The translations under genes were made by a program, and so were the position numbers. From contig JBEKRK010000003.1 of NCBI GenBank assembly GCA_049518795.1, positions 245,097 through 309,096 on the forward strand: a stretch of DNA of 64,000 bases, in the 5' to 3' direction. This DNA comes from Sedimentisphaerales bacterium. Its GTDB lineage: Bacteria; Planctomycetota; Phycisphaerae; Sedimentisphaerales; UBA12454. Of this stretch, positions 2,012-60,100 are shown one piece after another (the first letter of the stretch is position 1; every line of letters starts with the position of its first letter). Under the pieces are notes generated by a model, which ran no database searches, had not been told where the DNA came from, and saw only the letters and a list, made by a program, of their open reading frames with translations.

Positions 2012-5000
2012 TTAGGATTCATGAATAAAGTTGTAAGAGCTTTCAAAATTTCCATCATTTTTCATCCTAAAAACGCCGTTTAATATCAAACGATTAAAAA
2101 ATTTGTCATCCCCTCCTAATTTTCTCTTCTCTCCAAGCATTACCCATATTATGTCGAGCTCATTCTGATCCAAAAATAGTCTTAAATGCTGCTTCTTAAG
2201 CAGAAAAGAAGTTGGCCCTCCATATTCTACGATAGGGTTAACAGCAATTACTATGTCATTATTATCAAACCACTGTCCTTCTTTTCCTTTCCAAGACAAC
2301 TGCATACTTTCTGCAAGCCTTTGTGCCGGCAATGTAATATTTAGGCTATTCATAATTGAGCAGTCTCGCCCTGATTCCCGGTAATAATTATCTGTTGTCA
2401 AAGCTACGTCTACAGGCAAAGAATGCCAACGAGATTCATTCTTAATCCAAACATCCCTGCCATAATACGGGGTATTAAAATATTTAAAAGCTGGTGACCA
2501 ATAAAATTCACCAAAAAACAGCGATGTGGTTCCATTACCTTTTTCAGGCAACCATCTCCCCATAAAATTCTGTGTTTTTGCCCATTCAAATAACTTGTCC
2601 GAATCTTTTTTTCGAACCAAATAGGAATGAAAAAAGAACCATATATTTTTTCTGGCAATTTTGTATTTATCTTCTTCTGGAGGATATGGCTCTTCAAGGT
2701 TAAAATGACAATCCAAATTTAACCACTTTGCTTCATGGGAATCAGTAACTTCTATGATTTTTTCAAAGTTAGGCAAGTCATCTTTACTTCGAATCCAATC
2801 CACATCATTTTCAAATCTTTTCCATGAATTGCAACTATATGTAAACCACCAATATTTCCCATTATCCGGGATCTTTCTTTTGACAAATGAAGGGTCAATA
2901 TCCCTATAATATCTCTGCCAAGGCCCTAAATATTTATCATCTTCTTCAAAACCATCGCCATACTCATAATTATCACTTAGTCTTGCCAAGAATTCATGCA
3001 ATGCTATCCAGCGGTATTTCTGTGATATCATTTCAGGCTTATTTTCACTATGATAATCATAATCATTTAATCTTTGACGCATTTCATCAAACTCATAATG
3101 CAATTTGGGGCTCCAACCTAATTCTAAAATCCTGTTGAAGATATATGCCTCAATGAAATCTTTGCTGAATGGGTCATATTCAGTTGCATTAATATTATGT
3201 AAATAAGACGAAAATTCTTCATACTGCTTCCTTTTATTTTCGTCTAAAGATGCTAAAAATAGTTTTTCTGCATTATTAACCTCTTCTTCGCTTATATCCT
3301 CACCGATTTCTATTTTCTTATCTGGAATCCCAAATCCTTTTATTATTAACCTTAGCTTTTTTGAACTCAAATCCTTATAGCTATTAAATGCTTTTTTTTG
3401 TTCATCCGTTAAAGAATAAATAAACATTTCATATTTTTCTTTTCGTGAAACTTTTTTAGGTTCGCCGCGTCTCCGAGAAGACCATCCTGTATGTTCTATA
3501 TAATGTTTATTAAAATCTGAGTAATCATTTGTTACAATCCAGTATAAACGATGCAGGGCTTTTGACTCCAAGGTTTCATTATCTTTAGCTGGGGCATGAC
3601 AATATTTACTCTCTAATTCATTTTTAGCCGGAAAATCCTCTCGCCATTCACTCTTATAAGGAGGCCTGATTTTCTTAATATTGCATTTAATTGTAAGCTT
3701 ATAATGCAATGCCAATTCAATAATATTTCGGGCATAATCTCTAAGAAGAATATGTACCGGCGGGCAGCCTTTCTTGAAAATAGTATCGTAAACATACTGA
3801 GCCAAATCTTGTAATGATTTTATATCCAACGTACGCATCGCACAACCATAAGCAACAGCGTATAATCTTTCAGAAACATAAGGGTCATTAACTTTTTCGA
3901 AATCCGCTAATAATCTTTTAATTAAATAAATTTTGTTGGTTAGCAGGTTAACCATGGCCTTGGTTGACCAATCCCTTAAATAACGCTGGGAAGTAGTCAA
4001 AAACCAAGCAAGCATCTTTGCAACCAAATAGATTGATTCATCATCAATTCGGCTTTTATCCTCATCTGACAATGCCCAATCAATCAGCCGGTCAATTGCT
4101 CCTTTCTCGCCCACATGATAAAAAATATAGATAGACCAAGAAGCATCTCTTTCAGCTAATGGGTATTTCATTAAATAAGTATGGGTAAAATGTGTGTTAT
4201 ATGGGTGTTCCTTTATTGATGAAACGGTAATTAAAGTTTCAAAGAGTGAATTAAGTCCCTCCTTGCTTTTCAAACAACTGTTAATACACTTTAAAGTAGA
4301 TTCATATATTTTTTCTGGGTCTCGCCAAACTATGCTATCAAAAAATGCTTCTGTAATTGCACTATTTCCCTTCAGATGCGGCACATAATCCATTAGCTCA
4401 TGACCAAATATTTCCGGCACCTGAATAGATAAAGCTTCTATTAATCCTTTATTCAAGTAGCAAGCAGAAGAATCCTTAAAAATAATTTTTAGATTTTCAT
4501 TGGCTTGGAAGGATTTAGCCGGATCTTTAACATCAATAAAATTGGAAACATAATGTTTTGCAGTAAGATGATCAGAAAAACGTTCATAAGATAAACGAAA
4601 AACTTCTTTATACTCATTTTCAATGTAGTACATATCTTTATTGATTACCTGTTCTGATTCTAAATATCCAAGAAGTTTTGAAAATCCCTTTTCAAGAGGC
4701 ACATCCTTCATAATTGCCTGAATCTCTTCAAAAAACAAATAAGGCCTGTTTTTTTTGATAAAAGACTCCACTATTAAGTCTATTGCTTTGTGGATAGGCC
4801 TTGTTCTTTTGTCATAGTCTATATATTCAACTGATGATAATTTTCTATTTACCGAATCAATAAAGAAACTGTATATTCTTGATAGGCCACTATAGCCGCG
4901 TGGAAATTTTCTTATTTCATAATTTTTTAAGCTTTGACAAATTATTTTAAGAAACTGCGGGTTGGAAAATTCAGGGTTCAATAAAGGTATTGAGGGATAT

Positions 5001-25734: not shown

Positions 25735-26274
25735 AATCCGCGTAATCCGCGAAATCCGCGGTTAAAAACGGTGCCGTAACCGTGTTTTGTTTCAACTCCT
25801 TAGAGTCCATAGGACAAGGGCCGTTATATTTTTGCTTTAAGGCAAACTTATAGAACGGCAGTGTTATTGCTTCAACTTTGACGACTTTTCGGCAAAAATT
25901 CAGATTTCCAAACCTCGTGGGAAACTTTATCCCTTAGGGATTGTTTACCAAAGAGGTTAGAAATTTGAATTTAAGCTGTTCCGCAGAAATGCCTTAGTTG
26001 AAGCAATCAGTGTTAATGTTGTCATCCTCGCGAAGGCGGGGACCGTGTCCAAAATCTCTGCCTGTCCCGCCATAGCTTTTAGCGACGGCGGAACCGTAAC
26101 CGTATGACGTTTAATTGGATGTTCAAAGTTCAATTGTTCGATGTTGGACGTTATTTTTTTTAGAATTTTGAATTTGCTTAGGATTTAGGGTTTAGTGCTT
26201 AGGACTTTATTCTGTCTCCTGTATTCTGATTTCTGTGTTCTTTTTCCCTCTAAACCCTATACCCTAAACCCTAA
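25735..26274. repeat. Mixed cluster of periodic (6/7/9-mer) repeats, hairpin elements and a long inverted-repeat rod
   Basis: aatccgcg x3 (25735), rod 25866-26007, gtcatcctcgcgaaggcgggg (26021), heptamer arms at 26115, 26178, 26209, 26250. Confidence 0.75.
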
Positions 26275-26277
26275 TCT

Positions 26278-41872: not shown

Positions 41873-42523
41873 ATGAAGAAGTTTTTAAGTTTAGTTTTAG
41901 TTTTGGCTCTATGTGGTCTTGTCAGCGCAGATTTGCTGGACCTCAAGGTTGCCAGTCGCGGACCGTCAGAAACGGGCACCACAACCATTACTGGAGTGAA
42001 GGATATTACAATTAATCCTTCCGAGTGGCTCGACCTGAACATTTACTGGACTGGTACAACGGGTTATAAACTTGCAACAGTGTCAGTGCTGCTCACAGTT
42101 ACAGGCCCGGGTAGTATTGACCTGTTCACTCAACATTTGACATCTGAAGATGAGGATCCGACAATGCAGTTGACAGAACCGGCCAACGCATGGGATCCGG
42201 ACTTGAGATGGATTAACGTGCTCACAGCAGGCAAGAGCATCATCCTTGATTACAGTATGGCCAGTGGTATTTCAGGTAACGGCAACGCGAAAATTGCATT
42301 GGACCATATTATGTTCCATTGCGATGGCGGTGGCGATGTTATCATCACAATGGTGAATACTACAAACAGCCATGCCATGAACACCCTCGAGTACCAAGTA
42401 GCTAATCCAGATAACCAGTTTGTCCCGAACTTTGGTGGTCCTGTGACTATTCACCAGATTCCAGAGCCGGCAACAATTGCGTTACTCTGCCTTGGCGGTC
42501 TTCTTCTCAGGAAGAAAAGATAA
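41873..42523 (+). CDS. PEP-CTERM sorting-signal surface protein (copy A)
   Basis: Signal peptide; IPEPATIALLCLGGLLLRKKR C-terminus. Confidence 0.92.
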   Translation: MKKFLSLVLVLALCGLVSADLLDLKVASRGPSETGTTTITGVKDITINPSEWLDLNIYWTGTTGYKLATVSVLLTVTGPGSIDLFTQHLTSEDEDPTMQLTEPANAWDPDLRWINVLTAGKSIILDYSMASGISGNGNAKIALDHIMFHCDGGGDVIITMVNTTNSHAMNTLEYQVANPDNQFVPNFGGPVTIHQIPEPATIALLCLGGLLLRKKR

Positions 42524-42549
42524 GCCACAAGAGCTTATAGTTTGAAAAG

Positions 42550-42583
42550 AAAAGGGGCTGATTTTTATCGGCCCCTTTTTTTT
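42550..42583 (+). terminator. Rho-independent terminator
   Basis: AAAAGGGGCTGAT-tttt-ATCGGCCCCTTTT plus T-run. Confidence 0.85.
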
Positions 42584-43130
42584 GTAGCCACAAAGGCACT
42601 AAGACACTAAAATTGCTATATTATAATAATATTTTTGCACTTTATGGAAAAAGTAAAACAGTTCGACAAATTATCCGACAAAGAAGAGTTAATTGCTACA
42701 CAAATAATGGATATAGCTTATGCAGTTCATAAGACGCTTGGCCCCGGCTTGCTGGAAAGGATTTATGAGACCTGTTTTTGCTACGAACTTTCCAAAAGAG
42801 GCCTTTCATATCAGCGGCAGATAGAAATTCCCATAAAATATGATAATATTGTATTTGACGAAGGTCTTCGGCTGGATGTTCTTGTTGAAGGATTGATTAT
42901 TTGCGAATTAAAGGCTGTTGAGCAAAATAACGCATTATGGGAAGCTCAGCTTTTAAGCTATTTGAGGCTCACCGGCAAAAGACTGGGATTTCTGATTAAT
43001 TTTGATGTTCCGCTAATCAAACAGGGGATAAAAAGAATAATTTTATAATAATAGCCACTAAGGCCCAAAGCCACAAAGTCTTATATATATCATTTTTTAT
43101 TCGTGCCTTTGTGACTTGGTGGCTACAAAA
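42580..43130 (+). mobile_element. Repeat-bracketed single-gene cassette carrying the GxxExxY gene
   Basis: 12-bp perfect terminal inverted repeats TTTTGTAGCCAC / GTGGCTACAAAA extended by 8-mer periodic arms; third arm at 43052-43078; mobility is inferred. Confidence 0.6.
42644..43048 (+). CDS. GxxExxY protein (PD-(D/E)xK nuclease-like)
   Basis: VHKTLGPGLLERIYE, RLDVLVEGLIICELKAV, AQLLSYL, GFLINF. Confidence 0.93.
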   Translation: MEKVKQFDKLSDKEELIATQIMDIAYAVHKTLGPGLLERIYETCFCYELSKRGLSYQRQIEIPIKYDNIVFDEGLRLDVLVEGLIICELKAVEQNNALWEAQLLSYLRLTGKRLGFLINFDVPLIKQGIKRIIL

Positions 43131-43146
43131 TTTTTTTATTTTTCTC

Positions 43147-43333
43147 TTGCATTCCTTTTTCTGATATGGTATAATACCCTCAATTAATCAGCCAAAGGTT
43201 TATATATAGGGGTGGCTGACGAGTTGGGGCAGAGAAAAGTTATTGCTGCAGGAAAAATATATTTTTCCCTTGCATTTATCTTTGAGATATGTTATAATAC
43301 GCTTACTTAAATGGGGTAGAGAAAAGTTATTGC
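43147..43333 (+). promoter_or_regulatory. Two tandem, similar sigma70 promoter modules
   Basis: TTGCAT-17-TATAAT at 43147/43170 and 43270/43293, both with an extended -10 TG and both followed by TGGGGYAGAGAAAAGTTATTGC. Confidence 0.75.
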
Positions 43334-43340
43334 AACGTAT

Positions 43341-43682
43341 AGTTTTGAATTTTTAGTTCTAAGTTCTTAGTTTTGAATTGTGGATTTTGTTATCCATTAA
43401 CTCAAAACTCAAAATTAAAAACTCATAACTGATTGTGGTAGCTCTTTCAAAAATTTTATTCACCGTAGCCACCAAGACCCCAAGACACGAAGTAAATATA
43501 TAATAATTAAAATTTGGTGTCTTAGTGGCTAAATGGGGTTCGAGAAAACACATTAATTTATACAACTTTGTGTCTTAGTGTCTTTGTGGCTATTCGTAGG
43601 CTTTAAAACGCGCATTCGCTGCGAGGCGCAAACGCGGCGAAAAAACGTTTACCACCTTCGTGCCTTAGTGCCTTGGTGGCTA
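43341..43682. repeat. Gene-less periodic repeat arms (7-mer inverted pair; four 8-mer arms)
   Basis: agttttgaatttttagtt.. / aactcaaaactcaaaatt.. (43341-43410); TAGCCAC arms at 43466 (+), 43514, 43566, 43656 (-). Confidence 0.8.
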
Positions 43683-43722
43683 AAGTAAGTAGTTAACCTT
43701 TTTATTTTTTGGAGACCGAACA

Positions 43723-44376
43723 ATGTTGAAAAAAATGTTTGTATTAATTTTATTTTTGGCGGTAAGTTCTGTGTATGCAGGAACGCTTGATTTGCAGATA
43801 GCCAGCCGCGGGCCGAGCGAGACAGGCACTACTTCTATTACTCCGGTGAAATCTGTTTCAGTTAATCCTTCTGAATGGCTCGACCTGAATATTTACTACA
43901 CTGGCGTGACGGGCTTTAGACTTGCAACATTGTCGACGCTAATCACAGTTACAGGCCCGGGTTCTATTGACCTGGTAACTGAACATAAAACATCTAACGA
44001 TGATGACCCCACAATGCAGTTGACAGAGCCGAGCAGTGCATGGGATTCTGACTTGAGGTGGATTACCGCGGTTACACCAGGCAAGAAGTTTATCCTTGAT
44101 TACAGTATGGCCAATGGTATTAATGGTAACGGCGCAGCGAAAATTGCGTTGGACCATCTTATGTTCCATTGCGATGGCATCGGTACCGTTACTATCACAA
44201 TGGAGAATACTACAAACAGCCACGCCATGAACAGCCTCGAGTACCAAATATCTCTTCCAGATAATCAGAATGTCCCGACCTTTGGTGGTCCTGTTACGAT
44301 AACCCAGATTCCGGAGCCAGCGACAATGATTCTTCTTGCTGTCGGCGGACTTGCACTTAGAAGATTTAGAAAATAG
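43723..44376 (+). CDS. PEP-CTERM sorting-signal surface protein (close paralog of 41873-42523)
   Basis: Shares ASRGPSETGTT, NPSEWLDLNIY, DPTMQLTEP, KIALDH.MFHCDG, NTTNSHAMN with copy A; IPEPATMILLAVGGLALRRFRK. Confidence 0.92.
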   Translation: MLKKMFVLILFLAVSSVYAGTLDLQIASRGPSETGTTSITPVKSVSVNPSEWLDLNIYYTGVTGFRLATLSTLITVTGPGSIDLVTEHKTSNDDDPTMQLTEPSSAWDSDLRWITAVTPGKKFILDYSMANGINGNGAAKIALDHLMFHCDGIGTVTITMENTTNSHAMNSLEYQISLPDNQNVPTFGGPVTITQIPEPATMILLAVGGLALRRFRK

Positions 44377-44403
44377 TTCCAATTTGATACATCGTGGAAT
44401 TTC

Positions 44404-44442
44404 AAACAGGCAGGGCTTTTATTTGGCCTTGCCTGTTTTTTT
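44404..44442 (+). terminator. Rho-independent terminator
   Basis: AAACAGGCAGGGC-loop-GCCTTGCCTGTTT plus T-run. Confidence 0.85.
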
Positions 44443-44448
44443 GTTTTT

Positions 44449-45035
44449 GTAGGGTGTAGGGTGTAGGGGATAGGGATTACTTCATTTACTTCTTTATCCT
44501 TGCCTTACAGTTCTATCTCTTTATAATTAGAATTTAGGATTTAGGAAAACGTTCATCATTCTATACCCTAAACCCTATTCCTATAACCTAAAATTGAAAG
44601 GCTTAAAAAATGGAGACCAAAAAACTTAAAAGTTTTAAAGAACTCATAGTCTGGCAGAAAGCTTATAAACTCGTTTTAGAAATTTATAAACTAACCTATT
44701 TCTTTCCTAAGAACGAAACTTATGGATTGGTTCAACAAATCAGACGAGCGGCAATTTCAATACCTTCGAATATAGCTGAAGGATATGGCAGAAAACACAG
44801 AACTGACTATCACAGGTTTCTGTCTATGGCTTATGGCTCGTTGCTGGAACTTGAAACTCAATATATGCTGTCAACGGATTTAAGCTATGCTAAACGAAGT
44901 GAAATCATCGATGGTTTGATAAAAGAAGTCGGTAGTATGTCTTATCGTATAATGAATCCGATACAAAATTAATGAAAGTAGATGATTATAGTTTTACTAT
45001 GCTCTATACCCTAAACCCTATCCCCTATATCCTAA
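44449..45035 (+). mobile_element. Repeat-bracketed single-gene cassette carrying the four-helix-bundle gene
   Basis: TAGGGTG heptamer arm 44449-44477; complementary CCCTA arms at 44561-44592 and 45004-45035 flank the gene as direct repeats; mobility is inferred. Confidence 0.55.
44610..44972 (+). CDS. Four-helix-bundle protein (23S rRNA IVP / bAvd-like family)
   Basis: SFKELIVWQKA, FPKNETYGLVQQIRRAAISIPSNIAEG, AYGSLLELETQ. Confidence 0.93.
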   Translation: METKKLKSFKELIVWQKAYKLVLEIYKLTYFFPKNETYGLVQQIRRAAISIPSNIAEGYGRKHRTDYHRFLSMAYGSLLELETQYMLSTDLSYAKRSEIIDGLIKEVGSMSYRIMNPIQN

Positions 45036-45046
45036 AGGAATTAAAT

Positions 45047-45673
45047 ATGAACAGAATAGTTTTTATCTGTTTTTATGCAGTGTTTTTGTGCATTTACACA
45101 GGATGCGTGCCGCGGGGCGACCGTGTCGCAACGGGCGATTCGCAGAAAAAAGGCAGCATAGCTGAAAAAAAAGTCGAGTTGCAGTCAAAATCAGGCGACA
45201 ATTCATTTTCGGCCTTTCTGGCTGGAAAATGGAAGGCAAAAGACTCGGATGATTGCAAATGGGAATTTACTTTTGAAAAAGATGGAACAATTTCCGCAAT
45301 GCGGAATTTTATGGGCACGTATGTCAGGGTTTCCCAGGGCATCGGCTATGAGCACTATGCTTCTGATGCAAATGTGGAGGCGGCCTGTGTTCTGGGGCCT
45401 GTAGATGTCCTTTTCGACCCTCAAAGCAGGGTGCTGACGGTCAAGGTTGTTACGGATTATTTTATGTTTCATATCTATAGCGGGATGGTAGAGGGCAGCA
45501 GTGTTGACAAATTTTCGGGCACTGTCTCACAGGATGGTTCAACCTGGAACGCCGAATGGCAAGACTTTTCACGTATGCTTGATGGCCCGCCTATGGATTT
45601 TAACAATCCATTGATAAATCAAGTTGTTTTTTACAAGGTCAGAGAAAAGGTCAGAGAAGAAGATAGTAAATAA
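45047..45673 (+). CDS. Putative lipoprotein
   Basis: MNRIVFICFYAVFLCIYTG-C lipobox; AAGGA RBS; the upstream extension from 44972 is repeat-derived. Confidence 0.75.
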   Translation: MNRIVFICFYAVFLCIYTGCVPRGDRVATGDSQKKGSIAEKKVELQSKSGDNSFSAFLAGKWKAKDSDDCKWEFTFEKDGTISAMRNFMGTYVRVSQGIGYEHYASDANVEAACVLGPVDVLFDPQSRVLTVKVVTDYFMFHIYSGMVEGSSVDKFSGTVSQDGSTWNAEWQDFSRMLDGPPMDFNNPLINQVVFYKVREKVREEDSK

Positions 45674-49431: not shown

Positions 49432-49585
49432 CTTCTCTCCCTGAGACCTTTTATATAAATAATAACAAAAAAATAACAAAAAAGCAATAAGAATAAAGAT
49501 AACTTGTTGTGTGTAAGTGAGTTACGGCACGACAGAAAGTCCAAAAATCAGGTGTGTTTTTGGGGCAATTTAGTAATTGGTATTA

Positions 49586-49612
49586 CTTAGTGTCTTGGTG
49601 TCTTTGTGGCTA
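49586..49612 (-). repeat. 8-mer periodic arm whose terminal TAG is the cimA stop codon
   Basis: Minus strand TAGCCACAAAG-ACACCAAG-ACACTAAG. Confidence 0.8.
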
Positions 49613-51172
49613 TTTGCCGTCTTTGATAAGTTTATATTCGACGCTGTCAACCAGTGCCTGCCAGCTTGCCTCGATGATATTTTCCGATACGCCGACCGTC
49701 CCCCATATTGCGTCTTTGTCCCGCGTTTCGATGATGACTCTTGTAATAGCCGCTGTTGCCGCTGCGGGGTTCACTATCCGGACTTTGTAATCAATCAGGT
49801 GCATTTCGCGGATCTTTGGATAGAACCTTTCGAGCGATTTGCACATCGCGCTGTAAAGCGCATCGACAGGCCCATCACCTTCGCTGACGGTATGTTCGCT
49901 CTGGTTATTTACAATCAGCTTGATTGTTGCCTGGCTTACCATTTTTCCCGCGAAATTTTTTTCAACCGTTACATGAAATTTCTCTAACTTGAAAAACGGC
50001 TTATATGTTCCCATTATTTTTTTGACTAGCAGCTCAAAACTTGCCTCTGCAGCCTCGAACTGATAGCCCTTGTTTTCGAGCTCCTGCACCTCGTTAAGTA
50101 TTTTCTGGGCAAGCTGTTTGTCCTGCGCGATATTTGCCTTTTCCAATTTCGCAAGGATATTCGCCTTGCCGGAAAGTTCTGAAATAAGAAATCGCCTTTC
50201 ATTTCCGACAACAGCAGGGTCGATATGCTCATAAGTCTTTTTGTTTTTACGCAGCGCATCGACGTGCAAACCGCCTTTATGCGCAAATGCGCTTTCGCCC
50301 ACATAAGGCATATTCGTAACCGCCGGCAGGTTTGCAATCTCGAACAAAAACCGCGATGTTTCAGTGAGCATTTTTATTTTATCCGCGCCTAGAACTTCAA
50401 AGCCCATCTTCAGTGCAAGGTTCGGGATAATTGTGCACAAATTCGCGTTGCCGCATCTTTCGCCCATCCCGTTTATTGTGCCTTGAACCTGCCTTGCTCC
50501 CGCCTGCACCGCGGCAAGTGAATTTGCGACCGCGCAATCCGTATCATTGTGGCAGTGAATACCGAGCGATACTTTGCCGAATTTTTGCTTTACAGCTTTT
50601 GTTATTTCATAAACTTCATTCGGCAGACATCCGCCGTTGGTCTCGCACAGCGCGATTGTATCAGCTTTGGCGTCAATTACCGCGGCGATAACTTTCAGCA
50701 CATATTCGGGATTTCTTTTGAAGCCATCGAAAAAATGTTCCGCATCGAAGATTACTTCAAGCCCTTTGCTTTTCATATATTCTACCGACTCGGCGCAAAT
50801 TGTAATATTTTCTTCAAGACTGCATCGCAAAACTTCCGTAACGTGCAGGTCCCAGCATTTACCGACAAGCGTTGCCACAGGCGTCTTGCAAGCCAGAATT
50901 GCATTAAGTGATGCGTCGGTTTGGCAGGTCGCATCTGCTCTGCGGGTATTGCCGAACCCCGCTATTTTGGCAGGCGACAAATTGAAGTTTGCTGCTTCCA
51001 AAAAGAACTGCATTTCTTTCGGGTTGCTCGATGCGTATCCGCCCTCGATATAATCGAAGCCGAGCTTGCTTAAGTGCTTTGCAATTAAGAGCTTATCGTC
51101 TAATGAAAAGCTGATTCCCTCAGCTTGCATTCCATCGCGTAGAGTGGTGTCATATATCTTTATTTTTTCCAT
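49610..51172 (-). CDS. cimA: Citramalate synthase
   Basis: YDTTLRDGMQAEG, IFDAEHFFDG, HCHND, GERCGNANL, AFAHKGGLH, SELSG, GYQFEAAEASFEL, WGTVGVSENIIEASW. Confidence 0.92.
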   Translation of the reverse strand: MEKIKIYDTTLRDGMQAEGISFSLDDKLLIAKHLSKLGFDYIEGGYASSNPKEMQFFLEAANFNLSPAKIAGFGNTRRADATCQTDASLNAILACKTPVATLVGKCWDLHVTEVLRCSLEENITICAESVEYMKSKGLEVIFDAEHFFDGFKRNPEYVLKVIAAVIDAKADTIALCETNGGCLPNEVYEITKAVKQKFGKVSLGIHCHNDTDCAVANSLAAVQAGARQVQGTINGMGERCGNANLCTIIPNLALKMGFEVLGADKIKMLTETSRFLFEIANLPAVTNMPYVGESAFAHKGGLHVDALRKNKKTYEHIDPAVVGNERRFLISELSGKANILAKLEKANIAQDKQLAQKILNEVQELENKGYQFEAAEASFELLVKKIMGTYKPFFKLEKFHVTVEKNFAGKMVSQATIKLIVNNQSEHTVSEGDGPVDALYSAMCKSLERFYPKIREMHLIDYKVRIVNPAAATAAITRVIIETRDKDAIWGTVGVSENIIEASWQALVDSVEYKLIKDGK

Positions 51173-54767: not shown

Positions 54768-56317
<1,550 letters not shown>

Positions 56318-56713: not shown

Positions 56714-56769
56714 TATATATTTTTATAATAATTTTGGTTTTTCGTAACATCTTTACAAAGAACGAGTTA

Positions 56770-57293
56770 TAGCCACAAAGACACTAAGACACTAAGACAC
56801 CAAGAAAAAGAAGAATTAACCACGAATAAACACGAATGAACACGAATCTATCTCACCACAAAGCCACAGAGAGCACAGAGCGGCACAGAGGTTTCTGTTT
56901 CAGCGGCAATTAAAATTGCCCTAAATTCAAAAGCCAAGCCCTGCTTACAAGTAACACTTGACGCCGGCTTGCCATTTTGAATTTTAGGCTGCGCCTTTTG
57001 CTGAAACAAAAAACGTAAACTAATTAAACATTAAAGAGAGAAAGAAGATTACAAAGGACAAAATGTTTTGTATTTTCGACAAAAAGAGGATATAATTTTA
57101 ATTCAGAATTCAGTTATCGTTCCCTGCAGCAAGCCCAAGGAGCAGCATTCGGGAATGACAATGTTATCGGTTATCAGTAATACATAGAATACAGAACACA
57201 GAATACAGGAGGCAGAATAAAAATTTTAAAAGTGAACTTCCAACATCGAGCAATCGAACATCCAACGTTGAATGCGGAGCCGCCAAAGGCGGG
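56770..57293. repeat. Mixed cluster of periodic repeats, a long inverted-repeat rod and hairpin elements
   Basis: 8-mer arm 56770, cacgaat 9-mers 56820, cacagag 56856, rod 56891-57014, REP-like 57120, heptamer arms 57186 and 57235, ccgccaaaggcgg 57280. Confidence 0.8.
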
Positions 57294-59423: not shown

Positions 59424-60100
59424 AATTGAATATTTAAAATTTGATATCAGTTAAAAAAGAGCACAAGAACACAAGAGCATAAGTTAGAGTGATTTAAAAT
59501 TGAAGAATGAATCCGCCAGTCCGCCTGAGGCGGGTAAATCTTAATTTTGAGTTGAATAGACCGCTGAAGGCGGATTGAAAATTTAAGATTTAATCCCGAT
59601 GAGATAGCTTCCGCCAACGGGCGGGCATCTCACAGGACAAGTATTTAAAATTTAAGATTTTAGAAATGAGGTGCGTATGTTTATTTTATTAGGGATTGGC
59701 AAAGGTGCCTGGGCCGTTATTGCAGTGGTTACTTTAATTGTGATTTTAATTGCTGCAACAGCAATAAAGAAGAAAATGTATCCTGAGAAGATGGATAAGC
59801 CATGGAAAAAAGTGTGAAAATCCACCAGCCACAAAGGCACCAAGACACCAAGTCCTTGGGACTCCTAACGGAGAACATTGAATGAAAAACGGCCGATACA
59901 GCGAATTGAAAATTTAATAGCCACAAAGACTCAAAGACACAAAGGAAATTGAATCCGTCTTCGCCAAGGGCTTCCGTCTTCGTTAAAACTTCGACGAGAC
60001 AAGTCGACGCGACGCTTCGCGGATTGAAAATTTGAAGAATCCGCCGAAGGCGGATAAAAATTGAGAAAGAATAACGCCACCCTGAATGGCGGCGGCTAAA
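59424..60100. repeat. Mixed repeat cluster (TTGAAAA/TTTAAAA heptamers, CCGCC-N3/4-GGCGG hairpins, 8-mer arms, nested elements)
   Basis: Hairpins at 59521, 59561, 60040; element 59594-59637; arms at 59827 and 59918; nested element 59951-60024. Confidence 0.75.

Follow-up and report, generated by a model that had tools for sequence, protein, structure and literature searches.

Small GxxExxY and four-helix-bundle genes bracketed by inverted arrays of short core motifs: candidate intergenic counterparts of the rRNA intervening sequence

Why should two unrelated small genes, each following one of a pair of paralogous PEP-CTERM genes, be bracketed in the same way by short periodic repeats? The question is raised by a 64-kb stretch of DNA from a Sedimentisphaerales bacterium (G000:C3:245097-309096, G000 being this 2.9-Mb genome), which is the stretch analysed here and is called the window; coordinates refer to it unless a contig is named. 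One gene belongs to the GxxExxY family (PF13366) and the other to the four-helix-bundle or 23S-rRNA-IVS-protein family (PF05635, referred to as 4HB). Here we document the association of both families with periodic arms, the co-inheritance and turnover of genes and arms, and an arm design in which a core motif is kept and other letters are free. Characteristic of both families is a gene of about 120-135 aa set between inverted core-motif arrays, and where the location differs, the gene is still accompanied by its arms. Our best reading of what is new is that cassettes like the intervening sequence (IVS) of rRNA also occur in intergenic spacers, and that a second family, GxxExxY, is built in the same way around a core motif of its own. 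The two cassettes and the genes that precede them are as follows.

41873-42523: PEP-CTERM gene 1, paralogue of PEP-CTERM gene 2, upstream of the GxxExxY cassette
42546-42583, forward strand: terminator-like hairpin and T-run of PEP-CTERM gene 1 (17-nt arms, 88% complementary, 4-nt loop)
42584-42610, forward strand: arm F1, 5' of the GxxExxY gene, made of CAC-N-AAG-n units and tipped with GTAGCCAC
42644-43048, forward strand: GxxExxY (PDDEXK_3) gene, 134 aa (TIGR04256, E 5e-40; PF13366, E 1e-38)
43051-43077, forward strand: arm F2, directly past the GxxExxY stop codon, a direct copy of F1 (78% identical)
43100-43125 (pairing span to 43130), reverse strand: arm R1, inverted CTT-N-GTG units ending in GTGGCTACAAAA
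43723-44376: PEP-CTERM gene 2, upstream of the 4HB cassette
44404-44438, forward strand: terminator-like hairpin of PEP-CTERM gene 2
44449-44478, forward strand: purine-rich arm of the 4HB cassette, four TAGGG-nn heptamers
44560-44595, reverse strand: pyrimidine-rich arm (CCCTA-nn) just 5' of the 4HB gene, complementary to 44449-44478
44610-44972, forward strand: 4HB (23S_rRNA_IVP) gene, 120 aa (TIGR02436, E 8e-34; PF05635, E about 1.5e-35)
45003-45035, reverse strand: pyrimidine-rich arm 3' of the 4HB gene, pairing with 44449-44478 and so enclosing the gene

The original prediction for this locus, made from the letters alone, described three arms per cassette, two flanking the gene as direct repeats and the third inverted so that the outer arms form an inverted pair. 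This layout is present in both window cassettes, but it is not a general rule, as other copies have two, four or more arms, and the repeats that make up the arms are imperfect. R1 can pair with F1 or F2; F2 and R1 form a local hairpin with an AT-rich 22-nt loop, and the outer arms of the GxxExxY cassette (42580-42610 and 43100-43130) are 84% complementary over 31 nt. The pyrimidine-rich arms are direct repeats around the 4HB gene (22 nt, 95% alike), the outer pair of that cassette (44457-44479 and 45012-45034) is 87% complementary, and its lowest-energy fold pairs the outer arms (z-score -3.37). Both cassettes begin, as had also been noticed, at the T-run of the terminator-like hairpin of a PEP-CTERM gene, and the T-run at 42546-42583 runs on into the first arm of the GxxExxY cassette. 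Arm sequence and period had been called gene-specific, which is borne out in the window by an 8-mer (CAC.AAG) versus a 7-mer (TAGGG); it does not extend to a fixed period for GxxExxY, which is 9 nt in other clades. Both cassettes sit between protein-coding genes, and the only rRNA match in the window is a 16S gene at 54772-56317.

The GxxExxY gene of the window encodes an intact D...ExK nuclease motif (D78...E88-x-K90), and residues G33, E38, Y41, D78, E88 and K90 are invariant in 27 aligned sequences. Its AlphaFold2 model has a mean pLDDT of 91.8, and a Foldseek search with this model returned generic PD-(D/E)xK neighbours, none of them significant (Cas4 SSO0001 at E 0.02, lambda exonuclease and Hjc). 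The PDDEXK_3 family is described as having no assigned function and a history of multiple transfers (Steczkiewicz et al. 2012, PMC3424549). The 4HB product, which had been put at a scale of 42 aa, is in fact 120 aa long and matches XCC0516 (PDB 2gsc) at E 5e-24; the PDB entry has five chains, and this solved relative is reported as a homopentamer (Warrier et al. 2016, PMC4990558). The 4HB protein is not a nuclease. A proposed kinship with Avd, the accessory protein of diversity-generating retroelements (DGRs), stands as far as the shared four-helix-bundle fold family and a weak match go, but at 29 bits the protein falls below the cut-off of 80 of the DGR Avd model NF033474. There is no reverse-transcriptase-sized open reading frame (ORF) in 42500-45100, and no template/variable repeat pair inside the two cassettes.

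Genome-wide, there are six PF13366 matches and four PF05635 matches, three of the latter full length and one a 62-aa fragment below the cut-off. Periodic arrays lie on both sides of all nine full-length copies (six PF13366 and three PF05635). In an unbiased scan for inverted repeats between flanks, covering 2161 crude genes of up to 500 aa (median score 8, 99th percentile 14), a score of at least 13 was reached by 32 genes, eight of the nine copies among them (25, 18, 17, 16, 16, 14, 14 and 13); the ninth, a GxxExxY gene at C1:427076, has its arrays in direct orientation. The same list contains rplK, rplA, rplJ and two pseudopilin-like genes, so that arms are found beyond the two families as well. 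The rpl genes score as high as the cassettes because the nusG-rplK-rplA-rplJ spacers (C3:7169-9816, outside the window) carry inverted pairs of AT-rich heptamer arrays (AAATTTA / AATATTT type).

The association extends to relatives, for which 30 GxxExxY and 30 4HB loci were taken from 30 genomes of the same order, leaving out loci at contig ends (L006, L009, L021), with runs of N (L033, L045), without a tblastn hit (L058) or from the genome itself (L004, L048). A flank score of at least 11 was reached by 19 of 26 GxxExxY and 16 of 26 4HB loci versus 4.3% of control genes, and a score of at least 14 by 14/26 and 8/26, respectively, versus 1.2%, the controls being the 2161-gene scan of this genome. 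The flank score replaced autocorrelation thresholds and strict chains of three CAC units, both of which missed GxxExxY arms because estimated start codons cut into the arm. The RNAduplex energy of 150-nt flanks was discarded as a measure of pairing, random gene flanks already giving about -45 kcal/mol, which is too noisy. A lack of enrichment of cognate arms relative to other genes had been named as grounds for refutation; enrichment is what we find, at 8/9 copies here and 35/52 in relatives versus 1-4% of controls. The neighbours on both sides are on the same strand at 20 of 26 GxxExxY and 21 of 25 4HB loci, versus 54% of gene triplets in this genome, and median gaps to the neighbours of cassettes in relatives are 36-83 nt.

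Some other genes have repeats of their own. The GxxExxY copy in direct orientation (C1:427076-427426; L067, C1:424500-430000) has on either side a direct repeat of about 130-150 nt with internal complementarity (TTGCTTCAAC...GTTGAAGCA) and also carries CTTCGTG arrays in direct orientation; the repeat of about 130 nt matches no Rfam family at gathering thresholds. Small GIY-YIG genes were considered as a third family, a candidate that had arisen from one copy between distant arms, and were rejected, as the flanks of five small copies (of seven PF01541 matches) are without periodic arms. A Y1_Tnp-like gene of 151 aa (C2:670670-671125, L171) has CGACGAA repeats in direct orientation on both sides, followed by a GC-rich hairpin (CCCCCTGGCAAGGCAAGGGGG), and looks like a separate unit of the kind known as REPtrons (see below) with its own repeat. 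A near-perfect palindrome of about 35 nt, of no relation to the periodic arms, brackets each of two paralogous genes of about 106-112 aa (C2:404674-404994 and C1:567914-568252; N-terminus MDFNNW...TQFRKGLLEM).

What is kept within an arm is a core. The logo of 122 period-8 arrays found by autocorrelation, of which only the phase was fixed (on CAC), reads CAC-N-AAG-n, and in the TAGGG arrays five letters are kept and two vary. Among relatives the GxxExxY arms share a C-R-C core with a period of 8-9 nt (CACGAAG, CACAGAG, CACNAAG, C(A/G)CNGATT and CACNGAC). 4HB arms vary widely among cassettes (TAGGGTG, ACGCTAT, AGTGAAA, GAGCATA, CGCTAGT, GATGGAC and others), and each matches its own partner, a score of at least 12 being reached by 13 of 27 cognate versus 9 of 702 non-cognate pairs; they are thus private to each cassette. 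The distance from the end of the upstream 4HB arm to the estimated start codon has a median of 13.5 nt, and this arm is purine-rich in 16 of 24 cassettes, often resembling a Shine-Dalgarno sequence. For GxxExxY, arm classes (NAAG, NGAT, RGAG and NGAC) were placed on a quick IQ-TREE phylogeny of 31 proteins, with 23 rows labelled and eight unlabelled. They change three times, the minimum possible, whereas 500 shuffles of the labels gave a mean of 10.3 changes and a minimum of six. The covariation of protein clade and arm sequence that had been proposed as a check is therefore present for GxxExxY, although it demonstrates co-inheritance and not dependence, because kin share labels.

Orthologous junctions show how the cassettes come and go. 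Between the ABC ATPase and permease genes (17 loci, 16 of them with the ATPase upstream), G000 and its relative G001 have a GxxExxY cassette, G009 has arms of this type but no gene (134 nt), and G004 has a 21-nt spacer that opens with one unit, TAGCCACGAAG; a GAAGTAA-type hairpin lies there in G002 and G005, other 8-mers in G003, and the remaining nine loci have spacers of 12-125 nt without such arms. At the gspE|gspF junction (16 loci) AT-rich arms accompany a 4HB gene in G000 and G003, and GAAGATT arms a different 4HB subtype in G001, while G023 has GATGGAC arms and G005 a single 36-nt array; the GAAGATT subtype is found downstream of gspF instead in G004 and G009. In the leu operon (29 loci), leuA|leuC of G017 holds a relative of the window 4HB, 87.5% identical and with TAGGG-type arms, and that of G001 a 4HB gene with near-identical arms. 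The same spacer in G000 is 12 nt, TAG|GGTATAAAT, which is one unit containing the stop codon, and it reads GGTATAGGGTT in G004 and GGTATTATT in G003. The junction after leuC has a gene-less TAGGG hairpin in G017 and G012, and up to about 125 nt downstream of leuC there is another 4HB gene in five genomes and a GxxExxY gene in two. At leuA|leuC of G018, G014 and G013 (L143, L146, L153) one hairpin is nested in the loop of another, with outer arms of GxxExxY type (C(A/G)CNGATT) and inner heptamer arms (GAAGTAA / TTACTTC type), an arrangement suggestive of an insertion of one into the other.

The empty orthologous sites that had been asked for thus exist at the ABC, gsp and leu junctions, together with single-unit and arms-only states. 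Since filled, arms-only, one-unit and empty junctions occur and the same cassette is found elsewhere, cassettes arrive, disappear and change place together with their arms. No target-site duplication is evident in the filled-versus-empty comparisons at the ABC and leu junctions, where inverted tips are present; a flanking TA is uninformative on this point because TA is its own reverse complement. The idea of mini-elements whose solo arms are copies or scars therefore fares unevenly: arms-only and one-unit sites and relocation speak for it, while the non-nuclease nature of 4HB and junctions at which no target-site duplication was seen do not.

The layout is not confined to this order. A tblastn search of plasmid records returned eight GxxExxY and 34 4HB records, of which seven and eight, respectively, were examined. 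Inverted CAC-type arms are found at four of the seven GxxExxY loci (Bacteroides finegoldii, Bernardetia, Gemmatirosa and, in short form, Treponema); the Sphingomonas locus (L106), with the order fabD|gene|fabG and gaps of 3-33 nt, has an upstream array only, and those of a Fusobacteria bacterium and Prevotella have other repeats in direct orientation. Heptamer arms lie on both sides at seven of the eight 4HB loci (Trichormus, Nostoc punctiforme, Picosynechococcus, Stanieria, Riemerella, Gemmatirosa and Azospirillum) and on one side in Nostoc PCC 7120. The layout thus recurs in Bacteroidota, Cyanobacteriota, Gemmatimonadota and Alphaproteobacteria. The closest GxxExxY homologues, 60-78% identical, are in genomes labelled Planctomycetota, Desulfobacteraceae/Deltaproteobacteria, Bacteroidales, Prolixibacteraceae and Mariniphaga, and they keep CAC.AAG arms with GCCAC tips; the closest of all (78%) is in a genome labelled uncultured Planctomycetaceae. 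The Picosynechococcus 4HB gene (L115) lies between cas10/cmr2 and cmr3, which fits the 18 23S_rRNA_IVP genes reported inside cas loci (Zhang and Ye 2014, PMC3936711). The Azospirillum locus (L118) lies inside a large-subunit (LSU) rRNA gene (Rfam RF02541, E 2e-162), so the canonical rRNA insert has the same heptamer arms.

The 23S rRNA IVS (Coxiella, Leptospira, Azospirillum L118) is the closest precedent, one that the original prediction missed. Like the 4HB cassette it encodes a PF05635 protein, its ORF lies in the loop between terminal inverted repeats, its 5' arm contains tandem heptamers of varying copy number, and it is likewise regarded as a selfish element. As described for Coxiella by Warrier et al. 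(PMC4990558), RNase III cuts a 28-bp terminal stem, the S23p ORF is preceded by three to four tandem heptamers (GACAGAT), variable in number among strains, and the insert is discussed as a selfish or formerly mobile element. Unlike the 23S rRNA IVS, the window cassettes are hosted by spacers between protein-coding genes and not by an rRNA helix, a second and unrelated family (GxxExxY, PF13366) has the same layout with its own 8-9-nt arms, and gene-less arms are dispersed here in hundreds of copies.

The arms also fall, by their tandem units and intergenic enrichment, into the class of tandem intergenic repeats of 6-9 nt. Known members are the heptamers of Xanthomonas (GGGAATC), where 70-75 convergent pairs are able to form stem-loops, and of Nostoc (GGGGAYT) (Rehm et al. 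2015, PMC4692102), and the TAACTGA repeats of Beggiatoaceae (MacGregor 2015, PMC4679880). Like the 4HB arms these are 7-nt units, intergenic and close to gene ends (PMC4692102, PMC4679880); in contrast to them, the arrays described here bracket and co-vary with a specific gene family. The main texts of these two papers, supplementary neighbour-gene tables aside, contain neither "S23" nor "four helix" and make no link to 4HB or GxxExxY, and full-text literature searches, supplements aside, returned no paper linking either family to flanking periodic arms outside rRNA. Free-standing homing endonuclease genes are comparable in that a small nuclease gene is wedged, as GxxExxY is, between conserved co-oriented genes, and in that presence and absence differ between close relatives. 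They are unlike the cassettes, which have inverted motif arrays and gene-less arrays and include the non-nuclease 4HB.

Arms without a gene, as the original prediction had stated, occur elsewhere in the window, those of the CAC.AAG type at several sites. Between the two cassettes these and other gene-less arms are as follows.

43350-43428: gene-less hairpin, 19-nt loop, the arms having a 7-nt period and a different flavour (TTTTGAA/TTCAAAA type)
43465-43531: gene-less CAC.AAG hairpin, arrays F3 (43465-43491) and R2 (43514-43531)
43567-43592, reverse strand: solo inverted array R3, 81% alike in direct-repeat comparison
43657-43682, reverse strand: solo inverted array R4, 40 nt before PEP-CTERM gene 2, 92% direct match and 88% complementary to F1

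Further gene-less CAC.AAG arms are at 49585-49613, 56769-56808, 59827-59854 and 59919-59947, and TAGGG-type arms are at 26178-26277. In the genome there are 580 stretches with a period of 6-10 nt versus 63-77 in three block shuffles, and 386 of the 580 lie outside crude ORFs, although 88.5% of the DNA is within such ORFs. CAC.AAG doublets are found at 111 places versus none in one shuffled genome. Periodic arms are therefore not a product of chance. Gene-less arrays of the CAC.AAG core, at 111 + 77 places, compare with six GxxExxY genes. The polarity of CAC hairpins is fixed, with 15 F-then-R pairs and no R-then-F pair, their tips having the form T-run-TAGCCAC...GTGGCTA-A-run; GxxExxY cassettes share this polarity (21 versus 1). 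F arrays lie near an upstream stop codon and R arrays near a downstream start codon.

Several features stand beside these gene-less arms. A promoter-like element (TTGCAT, 17 nt, TATAAT, with TG just upstream) is duplicated at 43137-43187 and 43260-43310, with 43225-43246 and 43312-43333, each copy being followed by TGGGG(C/T)AGAGAAAAGTTATTGC; one copy is kept at the orthologous G001 locus (L139, about 4227-4308), and the duplicated element may be a small RNA or a leader. A promoter scan gave seven promoter-like sites versus 7.5 in shuffles, with a rule that missed the TTGCAT...TATAAT repeats, and Rfam at gathering thresholds matched the 16S rRNA alone in the window and L067, leaving arms and promoter-like repeats unmatched. 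Two periodic arrays (CAC.AAG and CACGAAT types; 56769-56851) lie about 450-530 nt upstream of the 5' end of the 16S gene, which is on the reverse strand; no 23S match was found in the window. Inserts of about 42 nt that start with CGGAG and have their own small hairpin interrupt GTG-type arms (C1, about 426,900; L139, 4183-4225). They recur elsewhere in the genome and look like very small nested elements that target arms.

Are the gene-less arms tied to the presence of the gene? The pattern CACNAAGNCACNAAG has 2-214 matches in all 19 genomes of the family to which the window belongs (G000 included), 14 and 46 in one other family and none in four further families, its reversed control giving 0-1 match. 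The cognate GxxExxY clade (at least 59% identity) was found only in G000, G001, G002, G009, G024 and G030. Since CAC.AAG arms are abundant where the cognate gene was not found, a strict dependence of the kind seen between repetitive extragenic palindromic sequences (REPs) and REP-associated tyrosine transposases (RAYTs) is not shown; REPs, too, are reported to outlive their RAYTs (PMC3733652). REPtrons resemble the cassettes in having a gene flanked by inverted cognate repeats, many intergenic gene-less copies, both single and as hairpin pairs, and a repeat type that matches the protein clade (PMC3733652). They differ in that the cassettes encode, in place of an HUH/Y1 transposase, a PD-(D/E)xK nuclease or a non-enzymatic helical bundle, that the arms are periodic arrays of a core motif and not one palindrome, and that the arms persist in genomes where the gene was not found. 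Indeed, the window genes are PF13366 and PF05635 and not IS200/IS605-type HUH tyrosine transposases, and the two PF01797 (Y1_Tnp) genes of the genome lie elsewhere and are not flanked by CAC arms. Arm tips in this genome read GTAGCCAC, ATAGCCAC and TTAGCCAC, and those elsewhere TACCAC, TAACCAC or TGCCAC; the REP feature to compare is a conserved GTAG (or CGTC) tag at one end of the repeat. The analogy with REP/RAYT pairs that had been drawn for this locus thus survives as regards enrichment, clade match and the many gene-less copies, but not as regards transposition, of which no signature was seen, or the persistence of arms where the gene was not found.

We consider it about evenly balanced whether both genes are the cargo of selfish IVS-type cassettes that occupy intergenic spacers as well as rRNA. 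Such a cassette would ride on the host transcript, where its arms would form an imperfect long stem cut by RNase III, by analogy with the Coxiella IVS, and the cutting would uncouple the insert from the host RNA. Spread and loss would take place at the DNA level, through copying and deletion between arrays sharing a core. The encoded protein, for GxxExxY a nuclease, would recognise this core, and the gene-less arms would be the more numerous, gene-free form of the same element.

A number of observations weigh against the reading as IVS-type cargo. Both window cassettes start directly after terminator-like hairpins, which makes read-through transcription into them uncertain, and S23p itself is probably not expressed in Coxiella according to Warrier et al. 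(PMC4990558). The lowest-energy fold of the GxxExxY cassette does pair the two outer arms, but with a weak z-score of only -1.53. Position 4 of the CAC 8-mer carries 0.03 bit (positions 5-7 carry 1.05-1.36 bits) and is complementary in only 5 of 24 cases across 14 solo hairpins; nor are free letters shared more between cognate than non-cognate arms beyond what permutation yields (0.33 versus 0.26 in the NAAG class, reached in 358 of 2000 permutations; 0.39 versus 0.31 in the NGAT class, reached in 419 of 2000). As free letters are unmatched between arms, the arms are inverted arrays of a conserved core and not co-evolving stems. Conservation of the core and not of pairing suggests that each unit may be recognised by its sequence. 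Transition mismatches in arms do lean to G.U on the sense strand, which speaks for pairing (80 versus 53, p = 0.024; 63/82 cassettes), but the bias is weak and comes from related cassettes that are not independent. By the strict pattern, 172 of 216 CAC array clusters are single and not hairpins. Finally, G004 (97% complete) has 37 pattern matches and no PF13366 match, and G006 and G007 have 113 and 63 matches, the cognate clade not being found in either.

The same evidence bears on other explanations. A REPtron-like DNA element, in which the GxxExxY nuclease would cut CAC arrays and mobilise its own cassette together with the gene-less arrays, with 4HB cassettes being mobilised in trans or by arm homology, is in our judgement unlikely. 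It would account for the invariance of the triad D78, E88 and K90 in the 27 sequences, for inverted cognate arrays around the gene, for the 111 + 77 gene-less places beside six genes, for an arm class that tracks the protein clade and crosses phyla with the gene, and for the fixed hairpin polarity and conserved tips (15 versus 0), while a core conserved as sequence and not as pairing suits a protein recognition site. Its difficulties are the abundance of arms in G004, G006 and G007, the junctions at which no target-site duplication was seen, a non-nuclease 4HB with the same architecture, Foldseek neighbours that are generic and non-significant (best E 0.02), and a tree that, with kin sharing labels, attests co-inheritance and not dependence. 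There is a small chance that the arrays are instead predicted cis-acting sites for an oligomeric protein encoded by the cassette itself, used for autoregulation or TRAP-like capture of RNA, their inverted layout being secondary. This would suit units that each keep a 5-6-nt core with one or two letters free, the three to five units per arm alongside the homopentameric XCC0516 (PMC4990558; five chains in 2gsc), the purine-rich (16/24) and often Shine-Dalgarno-like upstream 4HB arm that ends 13.5 nt before the start, and the many single arrays. It leaves unexplained, however, why arrays without a gene occupy hundreds of unrelated junctions, why genomes that lack the gene have arrays at all, and why presence and absence turn over.

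Similarly improbable, we think, is that the arms are generic, lineage-wide intergenic repeats born of slippage (terminators, RNA stabilisers or processing sites), among which small genes are tolerated or preferentially land. The intergenic location of 386 of the 580 periodic stretches, the many flavours, most of them without a resident gene, the arrays around rplK, rplA, rplJ and pseudopilin-like genes, and the heptamers of Xanthomonas, Nostoc and Beggiatoaceae, given no link to a gene in the passages searched (PMC4692102, PMC4679880), are what such repeats would produce. They would not produce cognate inverted arms at 8/9 copies here and 35/52 in relatives versus 1-4% of controls, nor an arm class that follows the protein clade and not the site or host phylum. 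Slippage would moreover copy the free letters too, yet adjacent units differ there while the core is kept, and small GIY-YIG genes of the same genome lack arms.

IVS-type cassettes in intergenic spacers would join three loose ends, namely the function and origin of the rRNA IVS and S23p, the very large families PF05635 and PF13366, and the excess of 7-9-nt intergenic repeats. For annotation, they explain cassette genes inside cas, fab, leu, secretion and ABC-transporter operons to which they do not belong. More tentatively, and we would sooner doubt than accept it at present, GxxExxY and 4HB may be the protein component of a selfish system that has two parts and is widespread. Each clade would recognise its own 5-6-nt core in inverted periodic arrays, and array hairpins would serve both as the gene-free form and as landing pads, their loops receiving copies of cassettes and of other hairpins. 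Such a system would account for much intergenic heptamer and octamer DNA (cyanobacterial, Xanthomonas) and for the origin of the rRNA IVS, and would parallel REP/RAYT, with a PD-(D/E)xK nuclease and an Avd-like binder of RNA or DNA as its proteins. If each protein does recognise its own core, these families would represent a new kind of small sequence-specific nuclease or binder.

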